The notes under the pieces: model-generated | Seen by the model: only the letters and a program-made list of their open reading frames with translations | What the model was told of the DNA's origin: nothing | Database searches by the model: none | In this document: positions 10,688 through 31,974 of the stretch, one piece after another | How the letters are laid out: every line of letters begins with the position of its first letter | How positions within the stretch are numbered: the stretch's first letter is position 1 | Program-made: the position numbers and the translations under genes | NCBI GenBank assembly: GCA_038890745.1 | Contig: JAWAFD010000001.1 | Coordinates: 218,704-282,703, forward strand | Reading direction: 5' to 3' | Source of the DNA: Candidatus Anstonellales archaeon | Lineage (GTDB): Archaea > Micrarchaeota > Micrarchaeia > Anstonellales > J096 | Length of the DNA stretch: 64,000 nt

Positions 10688-13333
10688 GTGGAAATATATA
10701 ATTTAAAAATAGAAGAGGTTTACAAAAAACTTTCAACAGCGCCCAACGGTATTTCCGAAGAAGAGGCAAAAAAGCGCCTTGCGGCATATGGCCCAAACAA
10801 ACTAAAAGAGGAGAAAAAACCATCGCTCATCATGAAATTTCTTGAGCAATTCAAAAGCCCGCTCGTCCTCATTCTTCTCGTTGCGGTTCTAATCTCTGCA
10901 ATCATAGGTGAGGTTCTGGACTCAGCCATAATCGCTATTATTGTTTTTCTTGCCGCGACCTTAGGTTTTGTGCAGGAGTACAGAGCCGAGAAAGCAATGG
11001 AGGAGCTGAAAAAACTCTCTGCCCCAAAAGCAAAGGTAGTACGGGAAGGGAAGATAGTTTTAATCGATGCTGAGAGCATAGTTCCGGGCGATGTTCTTTT
11101 TTTGGAAGAAGGAGACCGGGTTCCGGCTGATGCAAGGGTTGTTGAAGAGTTTCAGCTCAGGGCTGATGAAGCATCCCTGACCGGGGAATCAACACCAGTT
11201 CAAAAAAGTTCAGAAGGACTAGTAGGAAAGGTTCCGGTTGCAGAAAGAAAGAATGTTGTTTTTGCAGGAACAACAATTGTGCGCGGGCATGGGAAAGCGG
11301 TTGTTTATGCTACTGGAATGGAAACGGAGTTTGGAAAGATTGCAAAGATGCTTCAGGAAGAGGAAAGGCCAAAAACACCATTACAAATAAAAATGGAAGA
11401 GGTTGGTAGGTTTTTGGGCATCGCGGCCCTTTTCATCGTTTTCATAGTTGCTGGAATAGAGTTTATGCTCGGGATGGGGGACCTGCTTTCAGTATTCATA
11501 TGGGCGATTGCGCTTGCTGTAGCAGCGGTACCAGAAGCTCTACCAGCAGTTGTCACAACCTCCCTTGCGCTCGGTATGAGAAAGATGGCGAAGAAAAATG
11601 CAATCGTTCGAAAGCTCGATGCTGTAGAAGCCCTAGGCTCTGTGAATGTAATTTGCACAGATAAAACAGGAACGCTCACAAAAAACGAAATGACGGTAAA
11701 GGAGATTTTTGCTTCAGAATGGTACCATGTTAAAGGTGTAGGATACAAGCCTGAGGGAAAGATTCTTCATAGTGGGAAGGTTGTTGATCCATCGGATGAA
11801 AGCACAAGGTCTCTTTACCTTGCTTTGAAGATAGGTGCTCTCTGTAATAATGCCCATCTTATAAAGGAGGATGGTATGTGGAAGGTTCATGGAGACCCAA
11901 CAGAAGGCGCTCTCCTTGTTTCAGCAGCCAAAGCCGGGCTTTTCAAGGAGGAGCTTGAAAAAAATGAAGAGAAGGTTGCCGAGATTCCTTTCTCTTCTGA
12001 AAGGAAGACCATGAGCACTGTACATAAAGCAAATGGGAAATATTTTTTGTACTCAAAAGGCGCTCCTGAGGTTATTATTTCAAAATGTAAATATGTTCTT
12101 TTGGGTGGGAAGAAAAAAATTCTTACAAAAAATATGAAAGAAGAGATTCTAAAGAATAATAAAAAAATGGCTTCGAACGCTTTGCGCGTTCTCGCGATGG
12201 CATACCGGGAAATCAAAAAGCAGAAAAATTATGATGAAGAGGATGAAAGGGATTTGATTTTCGTTGGGATGCAGGGGATGATAGACCCACCTAGGGCAGA
12301 GGTTGCTGAGGCCATAAAAATATGCCAGGAGGCCGGCATAAAAGTAATCATGGTTACCGGTGATCAAAGGGCAACGGCAGAAGCCATCGCAAAGCAGATA
12401 GGTCTGAAAGGAAAGGTGTATGAAGGAGAGGAGATAGATGATGCGAATGTTGATAGGATTGTTGAAGATGCAGGAGTGGTAGCAAGGGCTTCCCCCGAGC
12501 ACAAGCTCAAAATAGTAAAGGCATTGAAGAAAAAAGGGTATGTTGTTGCTGTAACCGGTGATGGTATAAACGATGCCCCTGCGTTGAAAACAGCTGATGT
12601 TGGGGTTGCGATGGGAATAACCGGAACAGATGTTACTAAAGAGGCGGGCTCGATGGTTCTTGCTGATGATAATTTTGCTACAATAGTTTCTGCAGTTGAA
12701 GAGGGAAGAAGCATATATGATAATATAAGAAAATATTTGTTTTTCCTTCTCTCATGCAATCTGGGCGAGATAGCTCTTATGTTTGTTGCTGCGCTTTTCG
12801 GCTTACCAGTTCCGCTTCTTGCCATTCACCTTCTCTACGTAAACCTGGCAACGGATGGCCTTCCGGCCATCGCTCTCGGAGTTGAGCCACCTGATAAGGA
12901 TGTGATGAAAAGAAAGCCCAGGCAAAAAAAGGAAAGCGTTTTTGCTGGTATGAAAACAACCTTACTTTTATTTACAGCCTATCTAACCCTTTCCCTATTT
13001 GCCCTCTTTTTCATTTCCCTTCCTTATGGAATAGAAAAGGCGAGAACGGTTGTTCTGGCAGGTATTGTTCTCGCAGAGCTTGCAAACGCATTCAACTCAA
13101 AATCCATAGAAAAGTCTATTTTCAAATTAAACATTTTCGCAAACAAATGGCTTCTCCTGGCTGTTCTATGGGAAACCCTTCTTCTAAGCTTTTTCATATT
13201 CACCCCATTCTCATCATTCATAAAGGTTGTTCAGATAAGCCCGCAAGAATTAGCCCTCCCGATTCTCATAGCTCTTGGGGGGATAGCGGTCATGGAAGTT
13301 GCGAAATTTTTTATTTTTCGTAAATCCTCATAA
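10688..13333 (+). CDS. P-type cation (Ca2+-type, IIA) transporting ATPase
   Basis: TGES, VPEALP, DKTGTLT, KGAPE, TGDGINDAP. Confidence 0.95.
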   Translation: MEIYNLKIEEVYKKLSTAPNGISEEEAKKRLAAYGPNKLKEEKKPSLIMKFLEQFKSPLVLILLVAVLISAIIGEVLDSAIIAIIVFLAATLGFVQEYRAEKAMEELKKLSAPKAKVVREGKIVLIDAESIVPGDVLFLEEGDRVPADARVVEEFQLRADEASLTGESTPVQKSSEGLVGKVPVAERKNVVFAGTTIVRGHGKAVVYATGMETEFGKIAKMLQEEERPKTPLQIKMEEVGRFLGIAALFIVFIVAGIEFMLGMGDLLSVFIWAIALAVAAVPEALPAVVTTSLALGMRKMAKKNAIVRKLDAVEALGSVNVICTDKTGTLTKNEMTVKEIFASEWYHVKGVGYKPEGKILHSGKVVDPSDESTRSLYLALKIGALCNNAHLIKEDGMWKVHGDPTEGALLVSAAKAGLFKEELEKNEEKVAEIPFSSERKTMSTVHKANGKYFLYSKGAPEVIISKCKYVLLGGKKKILTKNMKEEILKNNKKMASNALRVLAMAYREIKKQKNYDEEDERDLIFVGMQGMIDPPRAEVAEAIKICQEAGIKVIMVTGDQRATAEAIAKQIGLKGKVYEGEEIDDANVDRIVEDAGVVARASPEHKLKIVKALKKKGYVVAVTGDGINDAPALKTADVGVAMGITGTDVTKEAGSMVLADDNFATIVSAVEEGRSIYDNIRKYLFFLLSCNLGEIALMFVAALFGLPVPLLAIHLLYVNLATDGLPAIALGVEPPDKDVMKRKPRQKKESVFAGMKTTLLLFTAYLTLSLFALFFISLPYGIEKARTVVLAGIVLAELANAFNSKSIEKSIFKLNIFANKWLLLAVLWETLLLSFFIFTPFSSFIKVVQISPQELALPILIALGGIAVMEVAKFFIFRKSS

Positions 13334-13778: not shown

Positions 13779-13831
13779 GGATGGTTTAAACAAAACAATT
13801 ATTTTAAATGTTGTTGTTTCAAAAAATAACG

Positions 13832-15007
13832 ATGCTGCCCATGCCAACCCTAAATGACTATCTTTCTGTTGCTATGCCTTTTATAGCAATTGCTTTCGGA
13901 ATCCATGTTTTCTATGTTGCTTTGCATTACATGTGGGGAAATTTGATGAACAGCCCGCAGGCGTATGCAAGGGGAAAGGAGGAGCTAATCTCTCTTTTCA
14001 GAACAGTTGGCGTGTTTGTTGCCGTCATAATAATATATAACATTCTCATTCTTGGTTTTGGGATAGATTTTATTGCATTGGCAAAGCTCTCTGTGAAAGG
14101 TTTTTTCTGGATGCTTGCAGATAGGTACATGGAGATAATGCTTTTTGACTTCGGTCTTGGTTCCATTTCGCAGACAGGCATTTTTCTGTTTATTCAAACA
14201 GAGTATGCTGCAATAGAGATAGGTGGCTCTCCGGTTATAGGATTGCAGAATACTCTTACAGTTCTACACAAAACCCTTGAACCACTCCAGTACGGCATTT
14301 CCCTTGCTGCTGGCAGGTATGCCCTCCTTGATTTTGCTCCTGCAGCCATGATCTACCTAATGCCCCTCGGCTTTTTCCTGCGCGCATTCCCCCTCACAAG
14401 AAAAACCGGCTCAAGCGTGATCGCTCTTGCGATAACAGTTTTTTTCGTTTATCCGCTTTCTGTTCTTCTTACAGACCATCTTGTTACCCTGTACGAAAAT
14501 CAGAGAATCACCCCTCCAACCCTTCCAAAGAACCCGCTCATAACAGAAAAGACAGATGAGGAGGTTTTCTCGGATTTTGTTGGGTATTTTGGAAAGGATG
14601 TATCCCAGCAACAAGGCCAGTACATTGAGCCTGGCAAGACAACTTCAACCAGTGGCCCGTATGGTTTTTTTAGCATAATCAGCAAGTTCCTTGGATGGCT
14701 TTTTGGCTGGATACCAAAACTACTTAGCAATATTAGCGCGATGGCTGCAAACATTCTTAGGCTTGTTGGCTCTACGCTTAAAATGATGCTTTCACCAGGT
14801 GCACCACTTTTCAGCCCGGCTGGTTGGGTCCTTCCAACCCTACTCATTTCTTTAAAATGGGTTTCCATAATTGCAGAGCAGATTGCAATACTATTCACAA
14901 TATTTATACTTGAGATTACGATAAGCATTACGATGTACAGGAATATTGCGATGCTCATAGGAGGAGAGCTTAGAATATTTGGGATTACAAAGGTGACAGG
15001 AGGATGA
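13832..15007 (+). CDS. Polytopic membrane protein, CedA/VirB6-like paralog 1
   Basis: PLGFFLRAFPLTRKTGSSVIA...VYP signature; start could be 13808/13832/13841. Confidence 0.6.
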   Translation: MLPMPTLNDYLSVAMPFIAIAFGIHVFYVALHYMWGNLMNSPQAYARGKEELISLFRTVGVFVAVIIIYNILILGFGIDFIALAKLSVKGFFWMLADRYMEIMLFDFGLGSISQTGIFLFIQTEYAAIEIGGSPVIGLQNTLTVLHKTLEPLQYGISLAAGRYALLDFAPAAMIYLMPLGFFLRAFPLTRKTGSSVIALAITVFFVYPLSVLLTDHLVTLYENQRITPPTLPKNPLITEKTDEEVFSDFVGYFGKDVSQQQGQYIEPGKTTSTSGPYGFFSIISKFLGWLFGWIPKLLSNISAMAANILRLVGSTLKMMLSPGAPLFSPAGWVLPTLLISLKWVSIIAEQIAILFTIFILEITISITMYRNIAMLIGGELRIFGITKVTGG

Positions 15008-15882
15008 ACCCTTTAATATTCGCTGCGATAGGGATAATGATCTCTGCAATCGCCTTAGCTTTTATGTTCGCAAGCTTTGCAAAAAAACCAGAGTGGGAGG
15101 CATGGGCAAAGGTTGAGCTGTACGAGCTTGCATGGGGGATAGTTTTGCTCATAGTAATATACGGAATATATACCTCAGTAAGTTTTATTGCGGATGCGTA
15201 TATCGGCACAAACATAATAAACTATTCTGAAAACCGGCTGAACGATGTTGTGAAAGACAGGCTCCTCCCAGCCTTCATACAACTTACTTATCTGGACCAT
15301 AATATTATTTTCTGGAGTCAGTTTAGGATGAGGTTCGGCCCTGCTGCATGGGGGATGACCTATAGATTCTATCCTGGGCTTGAAATCTACTCCCAGCCCG
15401 TAAGGATTCTTGAGTTTGGGTATATGGCTGCGTTTGCAAGCCTTTCTGTCCAGGTTATGCTTTTCCATATTTTAGATGTCATTACAGAATTTTTGCTCGC
15501 GGCAGGCATTCTGCTTAGGTTTTTCCCACCAACAAGAACAAGCGGAAATCTCCTCATAGCTATGGGTTTTTCGTTTAAGGTGATTTTCCCGCTCATGTAT
15601 GTTCTCTCCTACCAAGCGTTGGATGAGATATACAAAATTCATGGATGGAGCATGTCTGGTGTGTTAAAAACGTTATATATCCCGCAACTAATAGGTACAA
15701 CAATGCCAATGGTTCTTACCCTCACACCGCGTTTGTTCCACTCCCTCTTGGACAATTTTGGGCATCTTTCTGTTGAGATTCTCGTTATTCCCTCGACAGC
15801 CATAACCATCGCCATCTCAGCGACAACCGGTCTGCAGAAAGCTCTTGAATGGAAAACAATAGACTTAGGTGGTTGGAGATGA
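15004..15882 (+). CDS. Polytopic membrane protein, CedA/VirB6-like paralog 2
   Basis: AGILLRFFPPTRTSGNLLIA...IFP; ATGA overlap with previous gene. Confidence 0.6.
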   Translation: MNPLIFAAIGIMISAIALAFMFASFAKKPEWEAWAKVELYELAWGIVLLIVIYGIYTSVSFIADAYIGTNIINYSENRLNDVVKDRLLPAFIQLTYLDHNIIFWSQFRMRFGPAAWGMTYRFYPGLEIYSQPVRILEFGYMAAFASLSVQVMLFHILDVITEFLLAAGILLRFFPPTRTSGNLLIAMGFSFKVIFPLMYVLSYQALDEIYKIHGWSMSGVLKTLYIPQLIGTTMPMVLTLTPRLFHSLLDNFGHLSVEILVIPSTAITIAISATTGLQKALEWKTIDLGGWR

Positions 15883-17135
15883 TCCAGGTTCCTTTAGAGT
15901 TTGTGCCCTTCGCAATAATAGGTGTAGCCTTTGGCATCTCCATATCCCTCTCCTCCATTGCATACATGTTAGGCAGTGCTTTGGGTGATGAAAGAATAAA
16001 GGGATGGGCCAGGTTTGAGGTTTATGAAATATTCTACTCCGGGGTTCTTGGGGTTTTGATCGCATCCTCTTGGGCAGTGATGATCGGGCTGAGCGATGAT
16101 ATCGCAAAATCCTTAGACCCTCAGGGGTATCTTTTTGCCCTAACCGAACCAGACCACGAACCCATATTTCTCACAATGGCCCAAGCATACATGCGCGAGA
16201 TATACGGAGAAATCGCTTACCTTTATACAGAAATCTCAAAGGTTACCTCAATTACAATGTTTATGGAGAGCATATCATATTCAGTGGGCGTATCGCAGTT
16301 TAAAGATATTGGCGGGATGGTAAGCTTTGGGTTGTGCCCCCTTTTTTATGGCCCTTTCAATTTTCTCATGCAGAACATTACAGAAATGCTCATACGCGTG
16401 GGGGTGATTACAGTATTCCAAGCAGCAATTCTTGGTTTCATAAAATCCATAATGCCTGCTTTCATAGGGTTTGGTTTTGCTTTGAGAATACCTGGGCCTA
16501 CAAGAAAACTTGGTGGTTTGATGATGGCAATTGGGCTTATGCTGTATTTCGTTCTCCCCATGTTCTATGTTTTTGGAAGCGGGATATACCACTCCCTTGA
16601 CCCTGCTGAAAAGCACGCAGGCATGAGAATAGCGCAGTTTAACTCCTACTTTGGAACAGTTTCAATATTTGGAAACAGCATAGAATATGACCGGGAGTTT
16701 GATGAGAAACTAAGGGTTTATGAAGAATATATAAAAAGCGGAAAGCTTGAAGAGATGGATGCGCAGGAGCTTGAGGAAAGCCTGAGCCAAAACCTCCAGG
16801 AAACACAAAAGGAGTTTTATGGGTTCGACATCTCATTTCCTGGGGTTGTAAAAGCGATTCTTGACTCCATCGCCTCTCTTCCAGAATTGGCGGGGAATCT
16901 TGTTTGCATATCAAGGGTAAGTGCGCAGGCATGGAACTATGGTGTTCTTTCCCCATTCATCTACGACAACAAAATTTTTATTTCAGAGATAATGTTTGAG
17001 ATGCTTGCAAACCTCCTTTTCTTCACAACAGTTTTTTCATTCATGGCGCTCATGGCTATAATTGCCGGTATAAAGGGCCTTTCTCCGTTGCTTGGAGGGG
17101 ATGTAGAGATTGCGGGCCTTACGCACTTTATATGA
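15879..17135 (+). CDS. Polytopic membrane protein, CedA/VirB6-like paralog 3
   Basis: FGFALRIPGPTRKLGGLMMA...VLP; ATGA overlap at 15879. Confidence 0.6.
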   Translation: MIQVPLEFVPFAIIGVAFGISISLSSIAYMLGSALGDERIKGWARFEVYEIFYSGVLGVLIASSWAVMIGLSDDIAKSLDPQGYLFALTEPDHEPIFLTMAQAYMREIYGEIAYLYTEISKVTSITMFMESISYSVGVSQFKDIGGMVSFGLCPLFYGPFNFLMQNITEMLIRVGVITVFQAAILGFIKSIMPAFIGFGFALRIPGPTRKLGGLMMAIGLMLYFVLPMFYVFGSGIYHSLDPAEKHAGMRIAQFNSYFGTVSIFGNSIEYDREFDEKLRVYEEYIKSGKLEEMDAQELEESLSQNLQETQKEFYGFDISFPGVVKAILDSIASLPELAGNLVCISRVSAQAWNYGVLSPFIYDNKIFISEIMFEMLANLLFFTTVFSFMALMAIIAGIKGLSPLLGGDVEIAGLTHFI

Positions 17136-17144
17136 GGTGAAGAC

Positions 17145-18308
17145 ATGAAAAAAACAGTTTTGATTTTGATTTTTGCTTTTTTCCTGCTTCCCTCCTTGCT
17201 TCATTCCCAGCCAGCTTCTTCAGACAATTCTGCCACCGACATCTCAAACCTTGAACAACAAATTACCTCCGAGGAAACAATCCAAAAAATGATCGACACA
17301 ACAACTCAACTTGGTAAATGCGAAGAGCCGAAAAGTATTCTTGATGTTTTTGGCCTTTCCTACCTTGCTCTCGTTGTTGTTGTATTTTTCTACACCGCAG
17401 CTTATCTTGCGGGGAAAGTTTTCAACTACCCCATCACAGATGCGCTCCTGAGGATAAAGATTGATGAGGTTGCAACAACAATTTTGATAATATTCGCATT
17501 GACCTTTTTATATGCTTTCGTGAACTCCTCAGGCGGATACTACTATTTAGATGAAGCGATCAAATACAACGACAAGATTCTTTGGCATATTATTAGAAAC
17601 CTAGGTATTTTCACTATTTTCTCAACACTTATATACCTCTTGTACAGCCTTACAATATACATCCCAATTATTCCCGGCCTTCCCCTCATAAAATTTACAA
17701 TAAGCATCGGCCCAGCACTCAAACCCATTATAGATATGATATTCCAAACCTCAAACATGCTCAGTGTTATTGTAATAGAGTGGATAACGATGAAAGCTAT
17801 TCTATGCATGATAAAAACATGGTGGCTTAGCTTTGTTCTTCCTATTGGTGTTTTGCTAAGAAGCCTTTCAATTACAAAGGACGCCGGAAATACTCTTATA
17901 GCACTAGGAATAGGAATGTACTTCCTTTACCCTGTTCTCTTAACGATGAATTATGATATATATGAAATGCAGATAGGAAAGGCAGCAACAGGAGGACTGA
18001 CAAACTTTGACCTTTTCTTCGGGCAGATGAAAAACTTTTTATTCGGGGAGGCGCCGACAGTTTTGATAGGGATTATAATTTCCGGCATCCTTACAGTGTA
18101 CACAGAGGGCTCGTTTGCAATCGCCATAATCATAGCCTGGCTTCTCTGGCTTCTCCAAAACACCCTTCTAGATACGATATTTTTGCTTTTCATCATAAGC
18201 ATGTTCCTTCCGGCCCTAAATGTTTTCATAACCCTTACGTTCGTTATGGAGCTTGGCAAGCTTTTGGGAACGGATATAAATGTATCCGCCCTTACTAAAA
18301 TTATATGA
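17145..18308 (+). CDS. Polytopic membrane protein, CedA/VirB6-like paralog 4 (with signal peptide)
   Basis: PIGVLLRSLSITKDAGNTLIA...LYP; GAGGTGA SD upstream. Confidence 0.6.
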   Translation: MKKTVLILIFAFFLLPSLLHSQPASSDNSATDISNLEQQITSEETIQKMIDTTTQLGKCEEPKSILDVFGLSYLALVVVVFFYTAAYLAGKVFNYPITDALLRIKIDEVATTILIIFALTFLYAFVNSSGGYYYLDEAIKYNDKILWHIIRNLGIFTIFSTLIYLLYSLTIYIPIIPGLPLIKFTISIGPALKPIIDMIFQTSNMLSVIVIEWITMKAILCMIKTWWLSFVLPIGVLLRSLSITKDAGNTLIALGIGMYFLYPVLLTMNYDIYEMQIGKAATGGLTNFDLFFGQMKNFLFGEAPTVLIGIIISGILTVYTEGSFAIAIIIAWLLWLLQNTLLDTIFLLFIISMFLPALNVFITLTFVMELGKLLGTDINVSALTKII

Positions 18309-18317
18309 GGTGCGAAA

Positions 18318-19418
18318 ATGGCTTGGTACGAAATACCACTTCCCGGTTCCCATCCAACCGAACCAGCTGTGCTTACAGCCTGCAATCCTCCTAATGTTGA
18401 TTTTCTTGGGCTTTCCTTCCTCGCCCTTTTGGTCTCCTCACTTTACATCCTATTTTTTTATTTCTGGGGGAAGCTTACAAGCAATCCAAACATAGATGTT
18501 TGGGTGAAGGGAGAGCTTTATGAAATAGGCGCGACAGTTTTTATTGTTGTTTTTTTCCTCCCGCTTTTCCTAAATGTTGCGTGCGCATTTAAATTAGGAG
18601 AGTATAATATATTTGAAACAGCGCATGTGTACCTCGAATCTCTAAAGGCAAGCATAACCATGGTGATGCATGTACTTGCAGTAGGGTACATGGCAGTTGA
18701 TTTTATCGCTTCACTTTCTATAAAGGCCAGCCCATTTGGTCTTGGTCTTTCGGCTGCGGATGTTGGAGCGGGTCTTGTTGCTCTTTGGAAGCCGATATTT
18801 CTTCAGATAACAAACGCGCTTACGCTCAGCTATATTTTTGCGTCTGCCCAGACAGTAATCCTTGAATACTTTACGTATGGAATGATAACAAAGATTCTAC
18901 CGCTTGGTGTGCTCCTTAGAAGCTTCACCCCAACAAGAAGGGTTGGTGGGATGCTCCTTGGGCTTTCCATTGGTCTCCTCTTTCTCTATCCTCTAATCCT
19001 TACGCTCAACTACTTCCTTGTTAAAGACTATCTTGTTGTTTCCTGGGATCAAAAATACAATGTGTGGGAAGTTGATGAGAACTTTAAAACAATACTATCG
19101 GATATTTGGGATGTAATAAATCTTACAAGTCCAGAGTCTTCTTGGTGGGAAAATTTCTTTAAAACTGCTGGAGAGCTGGTTACTGGAATACTAACTTTAG
19201 TAGCCTTTGCATTTGGAAGCGGATGGCAGATTGTTCTTTTGATAGTAAGCGTTATATTCGTTCTTTGGGGCGCGGTCATCTCCGGTGCCTACCTTGGTGT
19301 TGTTGCTGGCATAATCCTGCCTGCTCTAAATGTAGTAATACTGGTGCAAGGAATAAGATATTTTACCTACATATTTGGGGAGGAGCTTGATATTACAACC
19401 TTAACGAGGATGGTATGA
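18318..19418 (+). CDS. Polytopic membrane protein, CedA/VirB6-like paralog 5
   Basis: PLGVLLRSFTPTRRVGGMLLG...LYP. Confidence 0.6.
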   Translation: MAWYEIPLPGSHPTEPAVLTACNPPNVDFLGLSFLALLVSSLYILFFYFWGKLTSNPNIDVWVKGELYEIGATVFIVVFFLPLFLNVACAFKLGEYNIFETAHVYLESLKASITMVMHVLAVGYMAVDFIASLSIKASPFGLGLSAADVGAGLVALWKPIFLQITNALTLSYIFASAQTVILEYFTYGMITKILPLGVLLRSFTPTRRVGGMLLGLSIGLLFLYPLILTLNYFLVKDYLVVSWDQKYNVWEVDENFKTILSDIWDVINLTSPESSWWENFFKTAGELVTGILTLVAFAFGSGWQIVLLIVSVIFVLWGAVISGAYLGVVAGIILPALNVVILVQGIRYFTYIFGEELDITTLTRMV

Positions 19419-20383
19419 TGGTTGAGTTTTGGGAAGGATGGGAAGTGGTTTGCATTCTGATTTCCTTAATCAGTGTGATAGGAACCGCAATTGTGATAAT
19501 GGCTGCAAAATTTTTTGGTTCAAAAGAGCTTGAGCAGAGTGCGAAGGCAGAGCTAACCTTTGCAATCTCTACGGTTCTTATCGTTCTCTTCCTGATCGCA
19601 GCTGTCAATTTTGCAGATTCCCTTGCGACAAGCTTTGGTAAGGAAAGCTCGAGAATAATATTCGGCAGGGAGGTGCATGTGGATAATTTTTGGGAGGTTT
19701 CAAAGCTTTATATGAACAATATTTACGAATGCTATGTTGGTTTCGAAAAGATATTGGTTTCTATAGACGCTCCCATCTCCACAATAGCCACATTGAAGTT
19801 TATGGCATTTTATTTTGACCCTATATCAGCCTACACTTTTGGAATAATGCATGATGCCATTCAGAATATTCTTGGCCTATTCTATTATTTCAAATGGGGC
19901 TATAAGCTTATGATAAAGACTGTTGATTTTTTCTTCTACATTGGCTTTCCCATCCTCCTTCCAACAGGTGTTGCTCTTCGTGCATTCCCTCCAACCCGCG
20001 GCACTGGAGCATACCTTATTGCATTTTCAGTTGGTATATATTTCGTTTTCCCTGTTGCATACCTTATTGCTGTTGGTGTGATGGAATCCCCGTTTTTATG
20101 CCCAGTGTTAGGTCTCAAATTTGTTCCGCTCCTTCTGGACCCCTGCGAAGCAGAGGACGTTAACATATTTGGATTTGTTTTCTCATGGGTGATGGGAAAT
20201 ATAGAATTTTTTAACGTGCTTTTCAAAGAATCCATTCCCGGCCTTCTCAGAGAGCTTTGCATTAACCTGTGCATCTTTCCTTTCGTTGCCCTTATGATAA
20301 CTTTCTCCTTTGTTAATTCAGGTTCGAGCCTTTTCGGTGCGAACATCCCGGAAGTTGGAAGAGGGCTTATAAAGCTCATATAA
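19415..20383 (+). CDS. Polytopic membrane protein, CedA/VirB6-like paralog 6
   Basis: PTGVALRAFPPTRGTGAYLIA...VFP; ATGA overlap. Confidence 0.6.
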   Translation: MMVEFWEGWEVVCILISLISVIGTAIVIMAAKFFGSKELEQSAKAELTFAISTVLIVLFLIAAVNFADSLATSFGKESSRIIFGREVHVDNFWEVSKLYMNNIYECYVGFEKILVSIDAPISTIATLKFMAFYFDPISAYTFGIMHDAIQNILGLFYYFKWGYKLMIKTVDFFFYIGFPILLPTGVALRAFPPTRGTGAYLIAFSVGIYFVFPVAYLIAVGVMESPFLCPVLGLKFVPLLLDPCEAEDVNIFGFVFSWVMGNIEFFNVLFKESIPGLLRELCINLCIFPFVALMITFSFVNSGSSLFGANIPEVGRGLIKLI

Positions 20384-20407: not shown

Positions 20408-23400
20408 ATGGATTATTATATGGGAAAATCCGTGTTGAAAATTTGCATCCTTCTTCTCCTTCTTTTCACTCAGCTTTCTTACTCCGTAGGTGAAAAATAC
20501 ACCTCGATAATTGTTTCAAAACAAGTGAACGAGCAAAATGGTACGATATTTTTCAACATTACTGTTCTTTATTTCAACACATCGAGGATAGAGATTCCGC
20601 AGGGGCCTGGTAAATCCCCAAAAATAGTAGAAGAAACGAACATAACCTCTATTGAAAATGCGACAGTTTACATATCCTTCTACAACACCTCTTATACAGA
20701 AGAAGGAAAGCTTGTCCAGACCCTTGTTCCTCTCCCTTGCTCGCCGCTTATGACAAACGAAACCTATGAAGAGGATGGTAAGGTTGTTTATTATGGAATC
20801 TGCATCGTTAGCGGCGAACTTTACTCAAAATATTTCAACAACACATGTAAGGGGTTTGATTTTTATTTTCCCGGAATAGCTCTTCCAAATGAGTCCATCC
20901 CTCCTACTGAAACAACACTCGATGTCTGCACAGGAAAACCAACCATTTTTGAAGCGCTCAGAGGAATACTTGCATCAGCCATAAACCCAGAGGACCCATT
21001 CTGCATTTCCATGTTCATAATATTCGGGCTTCTCCTCGCAACCATGTTTTTTACGGGAAGGTCTCCTCTTGCTCTATTGGATATGGTAACGCCCATGCTT
21101 CCAAGAGCAAGGAGGTTTGCGTACAGGGCAGGTGAGGCTGGAATAGGAGCAGGGCATAAGCAGATGAGGGAAGCAGCAAACAAAGCTATAAAAGCGGTCG
21201 ATAAGGAAATAAAAGAAAAAGAAAAGAAGAACCCTGTTCCAGCTAACTTGCGTTCATCGTATAACAGCGCACCCGGATGGAAAAAGCTACTTGTGTTGAA
21301 AGCTCTAGAGGAAGGAAATGTTGGGTTGGCCGAAAGAATTCTCACGAGTCGCAGTCCCTTTGACGTTGCCACAGATCATTGGGGCGAAAAGGACAGAGAT
21401 GTGAAGAAAGCATATACCTATTATGATATGAAAAAGACCCTCGAAGCTTACGATGAGATGCTAAAGGTTCCAAAACCTTTAAAGCCTCTTGGAAAAGTAT
21501 GGCTCCTTAGCCAAATTCCTCTAGCCGCTGCGAATGTAGGAATGATGGTTAGATTCGTAAAACGGGCAGTTAAGGCGCCTTTTGTTAGGTATGGTGAACT
21601 GAAACGTGTTAGAGCTGTTGAAAGCGCACCGCTGGGTACTCCGGCGAGAATGGCTGCTGAAGCAGAGCTTGCCGCTTACAGAAGAAGGCATGAGATAAAA
21701 CCAGTCCAGCAACTTTTTGACCCTCTTGTTTTCGGGCAGGAGCGCTACAAGGTACTCAAAGAGCAAGTTTCAAAAGAACTTATCTCATACTTGCTCCTAA
21801 GGGTTTTTGATAAGGCAAAAATAGAAAAAAAGGAGATAGAGCGAATTTTCGCCCTACTTCAGAAGGCGATCGCTGAAAAAAATGAGGCGCTTGCTAAAAA
21901 AGCGTGTGCGGATTTGGATAGGTTGATACATGAAATAGATAATCTTGACCCCAGATATAAACATATTATCGAGACAATTAGAAGGGCTTATTTAATGCCC
22001 AGCCCTGATCCATACCTAAAGGCATCCGGCATCTTACTTATTTTAGAAAAACAAAACATAATCTCGGGTCGCGAACTTTCAGAATTAAAAAAATATATAC
22101 AAGAATTAAGATATATAGACAGAATGAAAGACGCTGAAGATATACAGAAATTTTTAATGGCAGCCGAATACATTACAGATTATAGAGCCGACCTTCTACA
22201 TCCTCAGAGAAGACAAAAGTGGGAATGGTTTGTTCCTTCCCTCTTTACCTCAGAAGTAGAAAGAAAAAAAATTCCAATCTTTTCCATGCTTTTTGCGCAT
22301 GAACTTCTCTCTCAAGCAAAGGCAGACATATCTGATATTGCAAGATATTTCTTCGGTATTAGAGGGATTAATCCTTTATTCCCGCTTATGGAATATAATC
22401 TCCTCCCCGCTACGTTTAAAGGATGGGTAAAAAAAGAAAATCTTGATGGCGTGTATAAAACAATTTCCTCTTTTTCGAGCAGAATGTTCGATGAGATTGC
22501 CAAGAGGCATAACTTAGATATTCCAGGTTTGATGAAGGAAAAGCATGTTGGAAGTAAATTTGTGCTTTTGACGAAAGGTGTGTTTGATACCATTAACCTT
22601 AACACAAAAGGGGACTGGCATGTTTTTGCACCTGACTACTATGTCGGCAAGACACAAAGGATTACCTCATCTGCTTTTGGAAGGGCTTTGGAATCAGCTT
22701 ATGTTGGGGCTGTGAAGGAAAGGTTTGAGAGTGCGTTTAATGACAAAGCATTCATAAATCTTTTCTCATACTACAGCGTGATTACAAAAAATTTTGCCGC
22801 GGACAATCCGTACCAGCTTGCTTCTATAGGATACAACTCTGTGAGATACTATGTTGCTAAAAAATTAGGGGTGGATGTGGATGACCTTACAGACGATATG
22901 TTCAAAAGGTTTATAATCAACAAGAAAAACCTTGATTTGTATCTGACTGACTTTGACAAGGGCTCATTTGTACTCCTGAAAGGGTATGGGGTTATTCCGT
23001 TTATTCAGGATGTTCTGCGTCCAGACCCTTCAAAGCTCGACAGGTATTTTGTGGATAAAAAAATCAGAGAGTATATAGAAAATAGATTGGGATACTCCAT
23101 CCTGCGCGACAAGGATGCTATTTACTCCAAACTAGTAGCAAAGGGAGGAATAGCGCTTTCGGACTCTTTCATAAACACAACAATAATCGTGAATGTTGAT
23201 GGAAAATTCCGCTTGTGGAAAGGACAGGAGCTTAGCGAATATGATCTGTACAAATTAGATAAAAAATTGGTTGAGAAGAAAGAAAAAATCGGGCCTCAGG
23301 GAGAAGAGGCAAGACCCGGAGATTTTGTAAAACTATACCAGCTTGCTGCTTCCGGAGATACAAATGCTTTCAATAAAGTTAAGGAGATTCTTATAAAATG

Positions 23401-25075
23401 CGAGAGAATGGACGCATTTATGCCTCTTGCAAGCGCATATTATATGTCTACAAGAGACGTTGTTTCCCGCCAGGAGATCTTTAAAGGAATAACTCAGAAC
23501 TACGTAAGATACATTCCTATGGAGGAGGCAAGAAATGTGGTGCAGGATTGGAAAGACAGGGTTGAATTATTGGTGAAGAGGGGAATCAGCGGTGCGTTCA
23601 AGCCGATTATTTATGCTGGCGTTCCTTATTGGGAGGCTATGGGAACCGTTGTTACGGCTTCAGAGGCCGCAAGAAGGATTGGTGTGGAGTATGTTGGGGG
23701 CTTAACGCAGGATTATATTAAGGGTTTGGGTGAGGAAGAAAGAAAGAGGGAGATGGAATTTGCAAAAGCAGTAAAAGAGTTTGAGCATGCTTGGCAGTGG
23801 ACAATAACCAGGGATGCCTTACTGTATGGTGGATTTGAGAGGTATGGCAGGCCAGGCTATCTTACGACAGGTTTCCATGTAGGGCCCGCTATGCCAATTA
23901 CAAACTGGATGGATAGAAGGAGTTTTAGCCCGCTTTTCCAAAATATTCCTATATTAGATTGGGTTATGCAGAATGTTGCGCTTACAACTTTCAAGCTTTC
24001 AGTTGCTTTTTCAAGGCCTTTTGTTTTAGGCGCGAGAGCCATTACTTTTCGTAGATTTAGGTATCCGTCTGTTTATGACTTACGGTCAGATATTTCTGAA
24101 ATCAATCCTTTTGTAGCCACACAAGGATACTACTCTATCCATTCAACCATCCCGCTGTTACAGCAGCCGTCTCAACTTTTGTATGGGGCCGCTTCTCTTG
24201 CAGCCCTGCCTTTAGTTATCCCGGCCTTTATTAGGGAACTTAGAGAGAGGAGAGAGTTACCAATCTTCTCTATAGAAGAGCTTACTCCTGAGGAAGAGGC
24301 AGTTCCACATGGGGGTGAGGGTGCGCGTGGTATCCGACTACGAAAGTATGTGATTCGTGGAAGGGTTGTGGAAGCAATAAGGAATTCAATCGCTAGAGCG
24401 CATGAGATGTGGGTTTCACAGCCTGGTTCCATAAGATGGTTTGGAGTAGCAAACTTGGACATATTTATCGGAGCTCCGAGGATGACGGATACATATTGGT
24501 TCTACTCCTCTGCGATCGCAAACATAGGAGACACTGATACAAACCCAGGCCTTTCTTACATTCAAAGCTACACCGGAGAGTATGTTTGGGAGTCGGTTGT
24601 TCCAAGAGCACTTGAGAGAAAAGGATTTGAGCTTTTACCAAGAATGAGAGAGCACATGTTTGATGTGCATGAGAAAAGGACCCTCTCAGCCTTGGGGATG
24701 GCTGCTTTCTATTACACCGAAATTCATTGGGCAGACCCGTTTAATTTCAGAAACAATCCGCTTTATTCCATACTCTCTCCCGGTACTGCTCTTTTATCTT
24801 CCGGCGGATGGATGGGTAGAAAGATTTATAGATGGAAATATAAAAGAGAAATAAAGAAAGAGGAGGAAGAGTACAGAAAGCTTCATCCGGGAGGACCCGT
24901 TACTGATTGGGATAGGCTAAAAATGGGTGGACCAAAATCATCCAATGCAATATTGAATTTTGTTAAAGGAAAGTGGGAGAGATGGGTGTATGTTGGATGG
25001 AGTAAATGTAATCTATGCGGTACTAACTACTATGGTTCTGGACCCTGCCCAAGATGCGGGGCGAAGCATCCCTAA
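20408..25075 (+). CDS. 1555-aa membrane-anchored hypothetical protein with C-terminal Zn-ribbon
   Basis: Signal peptide, sequon-rich N-terminal ectodomain, TM at about aa 198-216, long helical region, terminal CNLC-x9-CPRC. Confidence 0.8.
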   Translation: MDYYMGKSVLKICILLLLLFTQLSYSVGEKYTSIIVSKQVNEQNGTIFFNITVLYFNTSRIEIPQGPGKSPKIVEETNITSIENATVYISFYNTSYTEEGKLVQTLVPLPCSPLMTNETYEEDGKVVYYGICIVSGELYSKYFNNTCKGFDFYFPGIALPNESIPPTETTLDVCTGKPTIFEALRGILASAINPEDPFCISMFIIFGLLLATMFFTGRSPLALLDMVTPMLPRARRFAYRAGEAGIGAGHKQMREAANKAIKAVDKEIKEKEKKNPVPANLRSSYNSAPGWKKLLVLKALEEGNVGLAERILTSRSPFDVATDHWGEKDRDVKKAYTYYDMKKTLEAYDEMLKVPKPLKPLGKVWLLSQIPLAAANVGMMVRFVKRAVKAPFVRYGELKRVRAVESAPLGTPARMAAEAELAAYRRRHEIKPVQQLFDPLVFGQERYKVLKEQVSKELISYLLLRVFDKAKIEKKEIERIFALLQKAIAEKNEALAKKACADLDRLIHEIDNLDPRYKHIIETIRRAYLMPSPDPYLKASGILLILEKQNIISGRELSELKKYIQELRYIDRMKDAEDIQKFLMAAEYITDYRADLLHPQRRQKWEWFVPSLFTSEVERKKIPIFSMLFAHELLSQAKADISDIARYFFGIRGINPLFPLMEYNLLPATFKGWVKKENLDGVYKTISSFSSRMFDEIAKRHNLDIPGLMKEKHVGSKFVLLTKGVFDTINLNTKGDWHVFAPDYYVGKTQRITSSAFGRALESAYVGAVKERFESAFNDKAFINLFSYYSVITKNFAADNPYQLASIGYNSVRYYVAKKLGVDVDDLTDDMFKRFIINKKNLDLYLTDFDKGSFVLLKGYGVIPFIQDVLRPDPSKLDRYFVDKKIREYIENRLGYSILRDKDAIYSKLVAKGGIALSDSFINTTIIVNVDGKFRLWKGQELSEYDLYKLDKKLVEKKEKIGPQGEEARPGDFVKLYQLAASGDTNAFNKVKEILIKCERMDAFMPLASAYYMSTRDVVSRQEIFKGITQNYVRYIPMEEARNVVQDWKDRVELLVKRGISGAFKPIIYAGVPYWEAMGTVVTASEAARRIGVEYVGGLTQDYIKGLGEEERKREMEFAKAVKEFEHAWQWTITRDALLYGGFERYGRPGYLTTGFHVGPAMPITNWMDRRSFSPLFQNIPILDWVMQNVALTTFKLSVAFSRPFVLGARAITFRRFRYPSVYDLRSDISEINPFVATQGYYSIHSTIPLLQQPSQLLYGAASLAALPLVIPAFIRELRERRELPIFSIEELTPEEEAVPHGGEGARGIRLRKYVIRGRVVEAIRNSIARAHEMWVSQPGSIRWFGVANLDIFIGAPRMTDTYWFYSSAIANIGDTDTNPGLSYIQSYTGEYVWESVVPRALERKGFELLPRMREHMFDVHEKRTLSALGMAAFYYTEIHWADPFNFRNNPLYSILSPGTALLSSGGWMGRKIYRWKYKREIKKEEEEYRKLHPGGPVTDWDRLKMGGPKSSNAILNFVKGKWERWVYVGWSKCNLCGTNYYGSGPCPRCGAKHP

Positions 25076-25115
25076 TGGAGGAAAGCATTTAAATTTTTAC
25101 AAAGAAAAATTTTTC

Positions 25116-27386
25116 ATGCGAAAATTGCTCCATCTCTTCTTTATTATGTTTTTTTTACTTTCCTCGGGATGCTTGATAGATAAAGAAAAGGTAAAGCAGG
25201 TTTTTGAAACCCCTTCTTATGAATTTGACGCACGCGAGCTCATATGCGGAGGCGGGCAGTGCGTTGCTTTTATATGCAACCAAAGCAAAGAAAATGATTA
25301 CACTGTTTTCTACCCTCCGCCAGTTGTCGGCTCAAACTGTTCTTTTGAGGTTGTTGAGACCAAGAAAGAGTACAAAGAATATTTGGCAGGAAAAGAGGAA
25401 TTTCTGCGCACCTTTGGTGCAGGGTTTGGCTCTTCCTTCATGGAGTTTGCGGATGCCAATGCTTATTGCAACAACTCCCTTACCTACTCTGTGAAATGGG
25501 TTTTGGGCAACACCTCAACCGGCTATGTCCTTCCCTCTCCTGAGCGTGCAACCTGCTTCTTTGAAAAATCCACCCTTCCTGTATACATCCTCTACGCCGG
25601 CGGTCCTTCTGTTCCAATAAACAAGGTTGCTGAGTTTGCGAAAGCATTAGATACAAAAGGACCAGCTATAGTTGTAACAGAGTATTCTTACAACTCCTCA
25701 GACCCAATAGAGATTGCGGCCATTTCTTCCCAAGCAAAGACGATAAAACAAAACTGCAAGAACTGCATTGTTGCAGTGTACACAAAAATGAATGATGATG
25801 CCATTCTAAAAGAAATGCAGAAAGATAGCGGATTTAATAAAAGCGTAGATTTGGTTGCTTTTGGTTTGGATGGCAGGGAAACGCCTCATTGCAGCGGAGG
25901 GTGGCTTATAAATAATGGCATGAATTTTTCCAGAGTGGTCTTGTATACCTATGGTAAACCATCCCTTTGGGCGTATATTCTAATCCCGCGTGGATTTAAT
26001 GAAAAAGGGATGTGCGTTTGGAACGAGGTTGAGGAGAAAAGAGCATACATTAGTCTTTTCATCTCTGTAGGTTCCATGAGAAAATACGGCGTAATCGGTT
26101 TTGCTCCATATTCTCTATACGGTAATCCTCTGAAATGCGAAAACTGCACCCTTATGGAAAATGGCGAGCCGCGCCAGGACTCTTTTTCAACATTTTTCTC
26201 CTACTGCCAGCAATTCTACTATTACTACAGCTTCCTTCCTGTTGCTTACGCAACAAAGCCAGGAACAAACTGCAGTTTTGAGAAAACACCATCCTTCCCG
26301 ATATTTTTTGGCCAGTCCTCCAGCGAGATTGATGTTCCTCTGTACACTGTTGATTCTCAAATGCCGTACTTTTACAAATGCGCTGCATGCTTCTCTTTTA
26401 ACGACACCATCCCTTCCGGTATCTCTGGGAGTGGAAGCGGCTATCACTGCACAGATGGAATAGGAAAGACAATAGACTACTGGGCAGATGTTTTTGAGGT
26501 TGACCCTGATTACATGAAGGCGATTGCTCAGCAGGAGAGCGGTTTTGATGAATGCGCAGTAGGGCTTGCCCCCCCCAACTGGTCATACTGCAATTCTGAT
26601 AATTTAGTTTTTGAAGATCCGACAGGAAAATGCAATGAAAAGATTCAAAATAAACTTAATAATTACTGCTGGGATAAAAGCGTAACAAAGTTTGCAGACC
26701 CAAGCGAGGCATGCAAACCATGCAGTTCTGTAAGCTCAGGTAATAACGGTGGGCATTGCAAGATATGCGCTATGGGGATGATGCAGGTTATAGATTACCC
26801 TGGGTATTACTATAAACAACACGGGAGCGAAGTCCCTGATAGGATAAAACTCTGCGGGGCTTACGAATACAACCCATTCAACATGAACGATAGTGCGTGC
26901 GCGAGAAGCTATGATGCCATGACGAATGCAAAAAAAGCAAGAGAGCTTATTGCTGAGTTGAGTTCAGATGAAAAATCTGCGCTTGGGATAACGGATGAAA
27001 ATGTAGGATGGTGGGTAGCTCTTTTTGCATCATACGCAAACAGCAAATCAACCATGCATGGATGGATAACCGATTACATTGAAAACAAGCCACAGAACTG
27101 CTATGGGCTTAGCGAAAGCGCATGCTATGCCCAGGCATGCTGCATGTGGGATGATGAAAACGAAGAATGCAAATATGCATACAGCCAGACATGCTGCGGT
27201 GCGAAGACCTTCTTTGAATACCTTGAAAGCAATAGGTGTCTATACAAACCATACGGAGTTCAGGTTTTAAGAAAGTATATAAATGCATGGAGAGAATGCA
27301 GAAATTGTGATGAGGGTCAGTTCTTGGATAACTTTAAAAAATACCATCCACCTTCTCCTGGTTTTCCTGGGTTTGGTGGGAAGTAG
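25116..27386 (+). CDS. Cys-rich lipoprotein with lytic transglycosylase (SLT/lysozyme-like) domain
   Basis: Lipobox LSSGC; VDPDYMKAIAQQESGFD and AMGMMQV motifs; start moved to ATG 25116. Confidence 0.75.
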   Translation: MRKLLHLFFIMFFLLSSGCLIDKEKVKQVFETPSYEFDARELICGGGQCVAFICNQSKENDYTVFYPPPVVGSNCSFEVVETKKEYKEYLAGKEEFLRTFGAGFGSSFMEFADANAYCNNSLTYSVKWVLGNTSTGYVLPSPERATCFFEKSTLPVYILYAGGPSVPINKVAEFAKALDTKGPAIVVTEYSYNSSDPIEIAAISSQAKTIKQNCKNCIVAVYTKMNDDAILKEMQKDSGFNKSVDLVAFGLDGRETPHCSGGWLINNGMNFSRVVLYTYGKPSLWAYILIPRGFNEKGMCVWNEVEEKRAYISLFISVGSMRKYGVIGFAPYSLYGNPLKCENCTLMENGEPRQDSFSTFFSYCQQFYYYYSFLPVAYATKPGTNCSFEKTPSFPIFFGQSSSEIDVPLYTVDSQMPYFYKCAACFSFNDTIPSGISGSGSGYHCTDGIGKTIDYWADVFEVDPDYMKAIAQQESGFDECAVGLAPPNWSYCNSDNLVFEDPTGKCNEKIQNKLNNYCWDKSVTKFADPSEACKPCSSVSSGNNGGHCKICAMGMMQVIDYPGYYYKQHGSEVPDRIKLCGAYEYNPFNMNDSACARSYDAMTNAKKARELIAELSSDEKSALGITDENVGWWVALFASYANSKSTMHGWITDYIENKPQNCYGLSESACYAQACCMWDDENEECKYAYSQTCCGAKTFFEYLESNRCLYKPYGVQVLRKYINAWRECRNCDEGQFLDNFKKYHPPSPGFPGFGGK

Positions 27387-27723
27387 CATTCATCCAATAG
27401 TATATACTCCTTCTTCCTATTCCATACTTTTTTGCAGTTTTACTTACACCCTTCTTTTTTGCCTCTTTCAAAATTTTTCTTTTTAATTTTTTTGGATACT
27501 CCCTCCTCCCCCGCTTTCTTTTCTCAACCTTTATCTTTACCCCAACATCCTTAAGTGCCTTCCAATATTTTTTGCTAACGCTTTTATATATCGCTTCGCT
27601 AACAAACATCTTCTTCATCTTAGTTTTATTAAGGAGAAGTAAAAACAAAAACTTACTCGGTTTTGTTTTCAAAACTATTTCTTCAGCATCCGGATTTTTT
27701 TCAATCCTTCCCATTATTTCCAT
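27334..27723 (-). CDS. DUF1699-like protein with C-terminal HTH
   Basis: NPDAEEIVL.TKPS...YKSVSKK; RGRR then VSKTAKKYGIGRRSIYYW. Confidence 0.6.
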   Translation of the reverse strand: MEIMGRIEKNPDAEEIVLKTKPSKFLFLLLLNKTKMKKMFVSEAIYKSVSKKYWKALKDVGVKIKVEKRKRGRREYPKKLKRKILKEAKKKGVSKTAKKYGIGRRSIYYWMNATSHQTQENQEKVDGIF

Positions 27724-28819: not shown

Positions 28820-28828
28820 ACTCCCAAC

Positions 28829-31430: not shown

Positions 31431-31974
31431 GTTTCTCCCCTCTGATTCTTGATAGCATAAGATTTTTTCTTGCTTTTGCAAGGTAGTTCAGGACTGTTGA
31501 GTGCATCGCACCTTCTATGATCATGTTAATCGCTTCCGTTGCAATATCTATGCTGTCAACCGGCCCTATCACACCTACCGTATGACCGTATACGCTTATG
31601 TAGCTATCCGAAGCATTTTCTATCTCGCTTTTTATCCTCCCTTTCTCCCCTATAATCCTTCCTTTTATCCTTCTCATTGCATTCTCACTATTCGCATACT
31701 CTTTAAGATTTATTATATGAAAATGATATCCCTCTTTTAGTAGCTTGAGTGCAACCCTTGCCTCAAACCCCCTTCCTATTGCGCGTACAACATCTTTTGC
31801 AAAGTATATTTTATCCGCATCTCCCTCCAGCATAACCTCCCCTTCTTCGTTCGCTTTTATCCTTACCCCGGCTGCATTTTCCACTTCCTTTTTTATCCTC
31901 TCATTCTCTCCTATAAGCGCAGCCACCCTTTCAGCGGGTATCTTTATTATTTCCTGTGCCCTTTCGCTCATCAT
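31423..31974 (-). CDS. KH-domain rRNA processing protein (Dim2/Pno1-like)
   Basis: RAIGRGF, RIKGRIIGEKG, GAMHSTV. Confidence 0.92.
   Translation of the reverse strand: MMSERAQEIIKIPAERVAALIGENERIKKEVENAAGVRIKANEEGEVMLEGDADKIYFAKDVVRAIGRGFEARVALKLLKEGYHFHIINLKEYANSENAMRRIKGRIIGEKGRIKSEIENASDSYISVYGHTVGVIGPVDSIDIATEAINMIIEGAMHSTVLNYLAKARKNLMLSRIRGEKHG

Follow-up and report, generated by a model that had tools for sequence, protein, structure and literature searches.

A six-gene array of paralogous membrane proteins

We analyzed a 64,000-nucleotide stretch of DNA (the window) from Candidatus Anstonellales archaeon, a tiny, host-dependent member of the Micrarchaeota. The window belongs to contig C1 of a 0.99-Mb metagenome-assembled genome (MAG) that comprises five contigs and is 93.8% complete. 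Positions 13808–20383 of the window are filled by six plus-strand open reading frames (ORFs) of 292–428 aa, which are six paralogs of one large unnamed membrane-protein family (A1–A6, or p1–p6 where positions are compared among arrays). A prediction made earlier from the DNA alone (the original prediction) had described a tandem array of highly diverged membrane-protein paralogs, and the comparison of the six proteins bears this out: all 15 pairs are found by blastp at E ≤ 0.003, and phmmer searches of a database of the six likewise recover 15 of 15 pairs, with E values from 1.3e-18 for paralogs 4 and 5 to 0.073, the weakest, for paralogs 1 and 4. The closest named relatives of the genome, with 80–83% identity in paralog 3, are Candidatus Micrarchaeota and Micrarchaeales MAGs.

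The junctions between the genes are those expected from the translational coupling that had also been proposed. The stop and start codons of A1/A2 and A5/A6 overlap as ATGA, and those of A2/A3 do likewise if A3 starts at 15879, which is probably the start used rather than 15849. At the A3/A4 and A4/A5 junctions, TGAGGTG is followed by a short spacer (9-nt gap) and then ATG. A scan for bacterial-type promoters and terminators gave 35 and 14 matches compared with 30.6 and 14.7 in shuffled sequences, a result that is uninformative for an archaeon.

The conserved segments named in the original prediction hold up well beyond the six proteins. The central G-hhLR-xxx-T(R/K)xxG...P motif is invariant in the six and near-invariant in 124 family members. 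Invariant positions in the six-way alignment are Y107, L160, G188, L191, R192, T197, G201, and P216 (paralog-1 numbering); among the 124 members, G198 and P213 are invariant and E46, G185, R189, T194, R195, and G308 are at least 90% conserved (paralog-6 numbering). E46 marks the N-terminal K/R-x-E block and G308 the C-terminal tail, which is present in five of the six paralogs and missing from paralog 2. The loops are unrelated, as had been stated, and the six-sequence alignment accordingly extends over 525 columns with 20–24% identity to the first sequence.

None of the six paralogs has a match in Pfam (E ≤ 1), NCBIfam, or PDB sequences, and a profile built from all six retrieves nothing from PDB sequences at E ≤ 10. 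In a metagenomic set of 1.84 billion proteins, the same profile retrieves 2807 cluster representatives with E ≤ 1e-3, of which 1888 have E ≤ 1e-10. All 26 matches obtained with a word-indexed search are without a Pfam domain, and the named ones are annotated as 'hypothetical protein' of Anstonellales or Micrarchaeota; organism-named family matches are all from Micrarchaeota (Microcaldota). Of 31 close relatives, 30 have the family, and the one without a match is a genome that is 83% complete. Across the phylum it was found in 135 of 151 genomes that are at least 85% complete and in 119 of 133 high-quality ones, a tally for which at most 12 candidates were scored per genome and which takes in one genome flagged as unpublished (G054).

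Fixed number and position-specific ancestry

A seventh family copy in this genome is a singleton of 307 aa on contig C1, and a second, deeply diverged array lies on contig C5, where six genes (318–574 aa) are followed by genes for proteins of 1230 and 772 aa. We compared the two arrays of this genome with 12 arrays from 11 other genomes. Every one of the 14 arrays has exactly six members. In closed, single-contig genomes of two other families (f13/f14), one array and one singleton are present in five of five, and in genomes of the order to which the source archaeon belongs, two arrays are present in five of five, together with 1, 1, 1, 0, and 2 singletons.

A tree built from 90 proteins by maximum likelihood (IQ-TREE quick search, LG+C20, 350 columns) groups the copies by their position in the array and not by genome, the latter being the outcome that had been named in advance as refuting. 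Gene-position labels require eight changes on the tree, compared with a minimum of six and a mean of 60.3 for shuffled labels, and none of 200 shuffles was as low. Single clades are formed by p2, p3, p6, and the singletons, with SH-aLRT supports of 82, 89, 96, and 97, respectively. Many end branches are long, and the deep joins of the tree are therefore unsure. The array on contig C5 pairs with one array of another family at all six positions, so that the two array types predate the families of the order.

Position-specific hidden Markov models (HMMs) applied across the deep clades assigned 22 of 30 proteins correctly (5 expected by chance) and, in the reverse direction, 28 of 54 (9 expected by chance). 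All 14 p3 proteins were assigned to p3 by the models of the other clade. Thus, the array is an ancient, position-specific set of paralogs and not a recent amplification, in keeping with the deep divergence that the original prediction had emphasized. Strict one-to-one orthology of each position, the check that it had proposed, is shown across the class for p2, p3, and p6 and only in part for p1, p4, and p5.

Fold and topology of the family

The AlphaFold2 model of paralog 6 (124 sequences, pLDDT 87.6, pTM 0.81) is all-helical with very long helices, and both the model and hydropathy give five membrane helices. We compared it with 48,161 chains using VIA, a structure search that is independent of Foldseek. 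TrwI, the VirB6 protein of plasmid R388 (7o3v_F), ranked second of 48,161, with Z 7.9 and a root-mean-square deviation (rmsd) of 6.3 over 239 of 261 residues. DotA of the Legionella type IV secretion system (T4SS) ranked tenth (Z 7.4, rmsd 8.8, 270 residues aligned), a match to which we give little weight. These two are the only natural full-length matches in the VIA list, in which most other rows are helix hairpins or bundles of 50–150 residues. In a second structure look, TrwI chains occupied ranks 1–3 (8rt9_F, 9.2; 7o3v_J, 9.0; 8rtd_L, 8.9), followed by a designed repeat at 7.9. Unrelated transporters, which would have spoken against the proposed relationship, were not the best structural hits. 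VIA warns that helical proteins below Z ~13 may match through a common arrangement, and because the scores obtained here lie below that level, the modeled resemblance of the family fold to TrwI/VirB6 is suggestive, not decisive.

The topology was assessed from residue composition in the 84 array proteins. Lys and Arg together make up 16.4% of loop 1 and 15.1% of loop 3, compared with 4–5.5% of the N-terminus, the long helical region, and loop 4. Most Cys residues are in the N-terminus, the long helical region, loop 4, and the C-terminal tail segment (1.21 Cys per protein), and most N-x-S/T sequons are in the long helical region and loop 4. The predicted topology is N-out, five helices, C-in, in which variable loop 4 and the large helical region that follows helix 2 lie outside. 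All three conserved motifs are predicted to face the cytoplasm. A complex prediction for paralogs 2, 5, and 6 using position-specific alignments (score 0.01, mark 0.32) says nothing on assembly.

Gene neighborhoods of single copies and arrays

Genes for a pilin-like protein, the family member, a protein of 260 aa, and an ATPase form a contiguous cassette in both of the genomes that have one family member only. The cassette also surrounds the singletons of five closed f13/f14 genomes, in one of which the homolog of the 261-aa protein was undetected. Altogether, a single-copy member together with a VirB2-type pilin and a VirB4-type ATPase is found in this genome and seven others. The 477-aa ATPase of the cassette in this genome (Table 1) matches PF12846 AAA_10 (1e-17) and DUF87 (6e-17) and also has TraG P-loop matches.

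The f13/f14 genomes link the array itself to such genes. Directly downstream of the six-gene array, four of the five closed genomes have an ATPase module (Table 1), and the fifth (L017) is rearranged beyond the 277-aa genes. Upstream of the array, a pilin-like gene was detected in three of the five (L015, L018, L019) and a gene for a six-helix protein in four (L015, L016, L018, L019). The six-helix protein is ~245 aa long and without a Pfam match; it abuts the array in several of these genomes, and a relative with 25% identity is encoded on contig C3 of the present genome (Table 1). This genome also has, on contig C2, a module that is orthologous to the array-linked module of f13/f14. The ATPase of the C2 module is 51–56% identical to the array-linked ATPases, and that of the C1 cassette 42–48%. 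The C2 module is of the array-linked type yet has no array beside it; thus, the arrays of this order were detached from the ATPase module.

Among the 11 pilin-like ORFs, six have a match to TrbC/VirB2 (best E 4.2e-6) and six have one to T4SS_pilin (best E 1.1e-5; best score 25.8 bits, compared with a required 26.6). These matches are just under the Pfam cut-offs, and the copy in this genome is the weakest (E 0.014 and 0.097). For the AlphaFold2 model of the 261-aa protein (16 sequences, pLDDT 82, pTM 0.59), the top nine Foldseek matches are all TrwK/VirB4 of R388 (E 2.3e-3 to 1.5e-2, probability 0.99–1.0, 161–183 columns), and TrwK is the sole domain-length match in VIA (Z 8.1, rmsd 6.0, 159 residues of the VirB4 N-domain region). 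We read this protein, from its model, as a VirB3-like hairpin plus a VirB4 N-domain that would have been split from the ATPase domain. The assignment of the ATPase to VirB4 rather than HerA comes mainly from the N-domain fold of the 261-aa protein and from context. No homologs of VirB5, B7, B8, B9, B10, or B11 were recognized in the system.

Relation to known systems

Like the present family, VirB6/TrbL proteins (TrwI of R388; PDB 7o3v, 8rt9, 8rtd; PF04610) are polytopic helical proteins that are encoded with a VirB2-like pilin and a VirB3/VirB4-type ATPase, and they provide its best full-length fold match (Z 7.9–9.2, 224–239 residues aligned). The topology predicted for the family also agrees: Agrobacterium VirB6 is N-out with five helices and C-in, and a large outer region follows helix 2. 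Unlike VirB6/TrbL, the family has no sequence or profile similarity to these proteins and comprises six fixed paralogs instead of one gene, and whereas the TrwI system is plasmid-borne, the family is chromosomal and near-universal in its phylum. TrwI forms a homo-pentamer under VirB5. The link to VirB6 and CedA suggested in the original prediction thus stands in kind, through the pilin/ATPase neighborhood and the TrwI/VirB6 fold match, and does not extend to sequence similarity with bacterial VirB6.

A study of the archaeal Ced and Ted DNA-import systems describes them as chromosomal, domesticated T4SSs with a VirB2-like pilin, a pilin-adjacent VirB6-like membrane protein, and a VirB4-like ATPase, and reports that their components are unrecognizable by BLAST between lineages (PMC9905601). 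The genes described here would likewise constitute an archaeal chromosomal, conjugation-derived set of pilin, VirB6-like protein, and VirB4-like ATPase. According to the same study (PMC9905601), CedA and TedA are single genes with seven predicted helices, in contrast to the five helices and six fixed paralogs found here. Neither DPANN nor Micrarchaeota is mentioned in it (PMC9905601). A language-model look-up places paralog 6, with a score of 0.91, close to a Microcaldota cluster; the CedA1 domain (PF27251) is present in 23% of the members of that cluster. We treat this as a lead only. Alignment by hhalign of a local pilin profile to the N-terminus of the family was not significant (probability 2.3%).

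RvhB6a–e of the Rickettsiales are four or five tandem, diverged VirB6 copies with large extensions that are recognizable as VirB6 by sequence. They resemble the array in that several diverged VirB6-type genes are retained in tandem over a long time in one system, and differ from it in being bacterial and in their copy number; they are not known to form one hetero-oligomer. Another DPANN lineage, the Nanohaloarchaeota, encodes T4SS-type ATPase parts with giant cell-surface proteins. These giant SPEARE-type proteins have a VirB4/TraG-like domain and are proposed to be T4SS parts acting on the host, in a paper in which VirB6 is not mentioned (PMC10266531). In the Nanohaloarchaeota, ATPase and giant protein are fused, whereas here the giant protein next to the array (A7, see below) has no P-loop and the 477- and 522-aa ATPases are separate. 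We found no paper on a six-paralog array in the literature on DPANN, Micrarchaeota, or archaeal VirB6, CedA, VirB4, and type IV secretion.

Proposed role of the array and alternatives

Because the family sits in a conjugation-like gene set elsewhere in the group, the array probably provides the membrane core of a machine, so far undescribed, for transfer or contact between cells. More specifically, we favor, with moderate confidence, a reading in which the array encodes a hetero-oligomeric platform at the VirB6 position of a chromosomal, conjugation-derived T4SS or Ced/Ted-like machine. The family would be homologous to VirB6 and would occupy the VirB6/CedA position. Its simplest form would be one copy in a four-gene cassette with a VirB2-like pilin, a VirB3/VirB4-N-domain-like protein, and a VirB4/HerA-type ATPase; in some families the six-gene array would substitute for the single copy within such an operon, and in this order the array would have been duplicated and detached, leaving the ATPase modules elsewhere in the genome to act in trans. 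The six subunits, one of each (1:1:1:1:1:1), would assemble as a membrane platform or channel that docks on the hexameric ATPase via the conserved cytoplasmic motifs. The variable Cys- and glycan-bearing outer loops would point to the host, and the platform would serve the assembly of a pilus or nanotube, or macromolecule transfer, at the site of host contact, with a substrate that may be DNA, protein, or lipid.

Several features of the array are consistent with this reading: (i) Gene number and order are fixed, the copies form positional clades, and translation is coupled, all of which speaks for a single complex of the six proteins. (ii) Because the conserved motifs are predicted to face the cytoplasm, they may dock to the ATPase or to its N-domain protein. 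(iii) The unrelated, Cys-rich, and sometimes giant outer loops suggest a fast-evolving surface. Taken together, wide presence in the phylum, a fixed composition kept over a long time, and a conjugation-type neighborhood make the array a concrete candidate for the membrane core of the machine.

A different arrangement of the same parts is conceivable, in which the six proteins would be alternative channel subunits, each forming a homo-oligomer with its own specificity for hosts, substrates, or pilins. The outer loops of the six are indeed unrelated, single-copy members evidently suffice in minimal cassettes, and VirB6 of R388 is itself a homo-oligomer. A set of independent alternatives should differ in size from one array to another, whereas all 14 arrays keep six genes in order with position clades. 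The start/stop overlaps or Shine-Dalgarno-like spacers of <10 nt suggest equal output from the six genes, and the f13/f14 genomes have one ATPase per array. We therefore judge separate homo-oligomers to be quite improbable.

Other observations weigh against a hetero-oligomeric VirB6-type platform: (i) Neither array of this genome adjoins an ATPase or a pilin, so that the coupling of array and ATPase rests here on analogy with other families. (ii) On the tree, p1, p4, and p5 do not form single clades (2, 3, and 2 changes, respectively), and none of the five p1 proteins of f13/f14 was recognized as such by the position HMMs, four scoring best as p4 and one as p6. (iii) VirB6 of R388 is a homo-pentamer and not a hetero-hexamer, and a single assembly of all six proteins is something that we infer. 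(iv) The best PDB sequence matches of the ATPase are to HerA (7.5e-13) and not to VirB4 (4ag5, 2.5e-6). (v) The VIA scores of Z 7.9–9.2, with rmsd ~6 Å, are below the warning level of ~13 for helical proteins, and Foldseek with the paralog-6 model returned nothing at E ≤ 1e-3. (vi) Sequence comparisons do not connect the family to VirB6: Pfam TrbL (PF04610) has no match at E ≤ 1 for any of the six, hhalign of the 124-member family profile with TrwI gives a probability of 0.2%, and the six-paralog profile has no match among PDB sequences at E ≤ 10.

Points (v) and (vi) could also be explained if the family consisted of helical membrane proteins with another role, for instance as transporters or lipid scramblases; the fold match to VirB6 would then reflect chance resemblance between long helices, and the neighborhood would be a coincidence. 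The Foldseek matches to the paralog-6 model are weak ones to G-protein-coupled receptors and TTYH2 (E ≥ 0.13), and VIA itself describes scores of this size as common among helical models. We consider this explanation highly unlikely in view of the four-gene cassette, which recurs in distant families, the independent recognition of two other T4SS-type parts, and the position of TrwI as the top natural full-length match in two structure searches.

If the VirB6-position platform is correct, the array would be the first T4SS-derived system in which the channel subunit is replaced by six fixed paralogs, it would inform how homo-oligomeric rings become hetero-oligomeric, and domesticated conjugation systems of the Ced/Ted kind would extend past Thermoproteota. 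The array also bears on how DPANN archaea attach to their hosts and draw material from them. A cryo-tomography report on a cultured Micrarchaeon, Microcaldus, in co-culture describes nanotubes between cells as well as a 21-nm barrel-like docking structure (PMC11329633). A bolder version of the platform, which we regard as speculative and doubtful, is a hetero-hexameric 1:1:1:1:1:1 ring, that is, an asymmetric VirB6-type channel symmetry-matched to the hexameric VirB4-like ATPase and forming the core of the intercellular nanotube or docking apparatus of Micrarchaeota. Cytoplasmic material would then be exchanged with the host through the ring, and the two array types per genome in this order would represent two machines or one machine with two rings.

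Giant and cysteine-rich proteins next to the arrays

The array in the window is followed by genes for two large proteins, A7 and A8 (Table 1). A7 is an orphan membrane protein in which nine of the ten N-x-S/T sequons fall within residues 44–161 of an ectodomain that thus looks glycosylated, and a long stretch between the transmembrane (TM) helices is without cysteine clusters. No P-loop was found in its sequence, and searches of Pfam, NCBIfam, PDB sequences, and the Atlas gave no lead. It is kept in place in contigs of the same genus with 67–72% identity (residues 24–1553 in L012; the first ~400 residues in L011, where the contig ends), and no clear homolog was found beside other arrays, the only match being one of 20.7 bits in L022. 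A8 is 80% identical in L012, and distant relatives of it adjoin arrays in L026 and L013. AT-rich boxes precede both genes, and from the sequence each may have its own promoter.

Residues 454–484 of A8 (31 residues) have a sub-threshold match to PF01464 SLT (E 6.5e-4, 19.7 bits, compared with a cut-off of 21.3). No lysozyme-like PDB sequence matched A8, the only match being to a phage tail-fiber stretch (E 1.6e-3). A lytic transglycosylase of the VirB1 kind is an optional part of minimal T4SS-derived systems. A stretch resembling such an enzyme is odd for an archaeon; the reported hosts of Micrarchaeota are not known to have murein.

The presence of these proteins raises an alternative in which the array would be an independent platform that anchors, exports, or displays the adjacent giant and Cys-rich surface proteins and, in this order, no longer works with a conjugation-type ATPase. 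Both arrays of this genome are followed by one giant and one Cys-rich protein (1555 and 757 aa here, 1230 and 772 aa on contig C5). The type-B array of L022 is followed by homologs of the C5 pair (E 7e-25 and 1e-10) and the array of L026 by an A8-like protein, some paralogs themselves are enlarged by giant Cys-rich inserts on the outer side (one reaches 1380 aa with 106 Cys), and the arrays of this genome, as noted above, stand apart from ATPase and pilin genes. Four of seven further arrays of the order (L020, L021, L023, L024), however, have no giant neighbor, and the giant proteins differ between the array types, with no match between A7 and B7. In addition, the f13/f14 array and the ATPase module lie in a single operon, and two modules of this kind are retained in this genome. 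On balance, we think an independent display platform unlikely. Because some arrays have giant neighbors and others do not, we treat the downstream proteins as variable cargo or accessory parts.

Table 1 Location of the array genes, the T4SS-like modules, and other features discussed in the text. Positions without a contig or locus name refer to the window.
Feature	Position	Strand	Description
Paralog 1 (A1, p1)	13808..15007	+	399 aa; alternative start 13832; family HMM E 6.6e-49; groups with p1 of same-order arrays on the tree
Paralog 2 (A2, p2)	15004..15882	+	292 aa
Paralog 3 (A3, p3)	15849..17135	+	428 aa
Paralog 4 (A4, p4)	17145..18308	+	387 aa; signal-peptide-like N-terminus; ~60-aa N-terminal extension; nearest paralog is 5
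Paralog 5 (A5, p5)	18318..19418	+	366 aa
Paralog 6 (A6, p6)	19415..20383	+	322 aa
A7, orphan membrane protein	20408..25075	+	1555 aa; signal peptide; N-terminal ectodomain; TM near 198 and 1257; C-terminal CxxC...CxxC zinc ribbon
A8, Cys-rich protein	25113..27386	+	757 aa; lipobox-like N-terminus; 39 Cys in the 808-aa ORF form
P-type ATPase	10688–13333		Upstream of the array
Archaeal housekeeping genes	27701–31481 and 36555–37823		DUF530, topoisomerase VI A and B, EF-1alpha, ribosomal proteins, Orc1/Cdc6
Singleton cassette of this genome	Contig C1		In order: 81-aa two-helix pilin-like protein, 307-aa singleton, 261-aa protein (two N-terminal helices), 477-aa ATPase, 232-aa coiled-coil protein
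Array-linked module of f13/f14			In order: two 277-aa homologs of the 261-aa protein, 505-aa ATPase, two small proteins (one with zinc finger and membrane helix), 243-aa coiled-coil homolog, ~800-aa protein
Array-less module of this genome	C2:64097–70063 (L032 8098–14064)		271, 522, 133, 248, and 804 aa: VirB3/4N-like, ATPase, zinc-finger membrane, coiled-coil, and 804-aa proteins
Six-helix protein	L015 2771–3502		Abuts f13/f14 array
Six-helix protein	L016 2619–3368		Abuts f13/f14 array
Six-helix protein	L019 16269–17003		Abuts f13/f14 array
Relative of six-helix protein	C3 76270–76938		This genome
Enlarged p3 of type-B array	L022 5814–9956		Another genome of the order
Run of divergent gene pairs	C5:15000–21300 (L009 1–6300)		This genome, downstream of the 772-aa protein

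Flanking genes and other observations

The array is preceded by a gene for a P-type ATPase and followed, beyond A8, by flanks of archaeal housekeeping genes (Table 1). Judging by the neighboring genes of the window, there are no signs of a mobile element around the array.

The enlarged paralog of L022 is the p3 protein of a type-B array, and its 106 cysteines are in the outer loop; giant inserts of 1072–1387 aa also occur in arrays of other genomes. On contig C5, the region downstream of the 772-aa protein is occupied by a run of alternating divergent gene pairs. The plus-strand ORFs of this run (~150–190 aa) begin MVIGVKERKDKEVKF, and the minus-strand ORFs (195–304 aa) resemble part of the 772-aa protein (E 1e-54 to 6e-13). 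The run looks like a cassette array of variable surface-protein parts.

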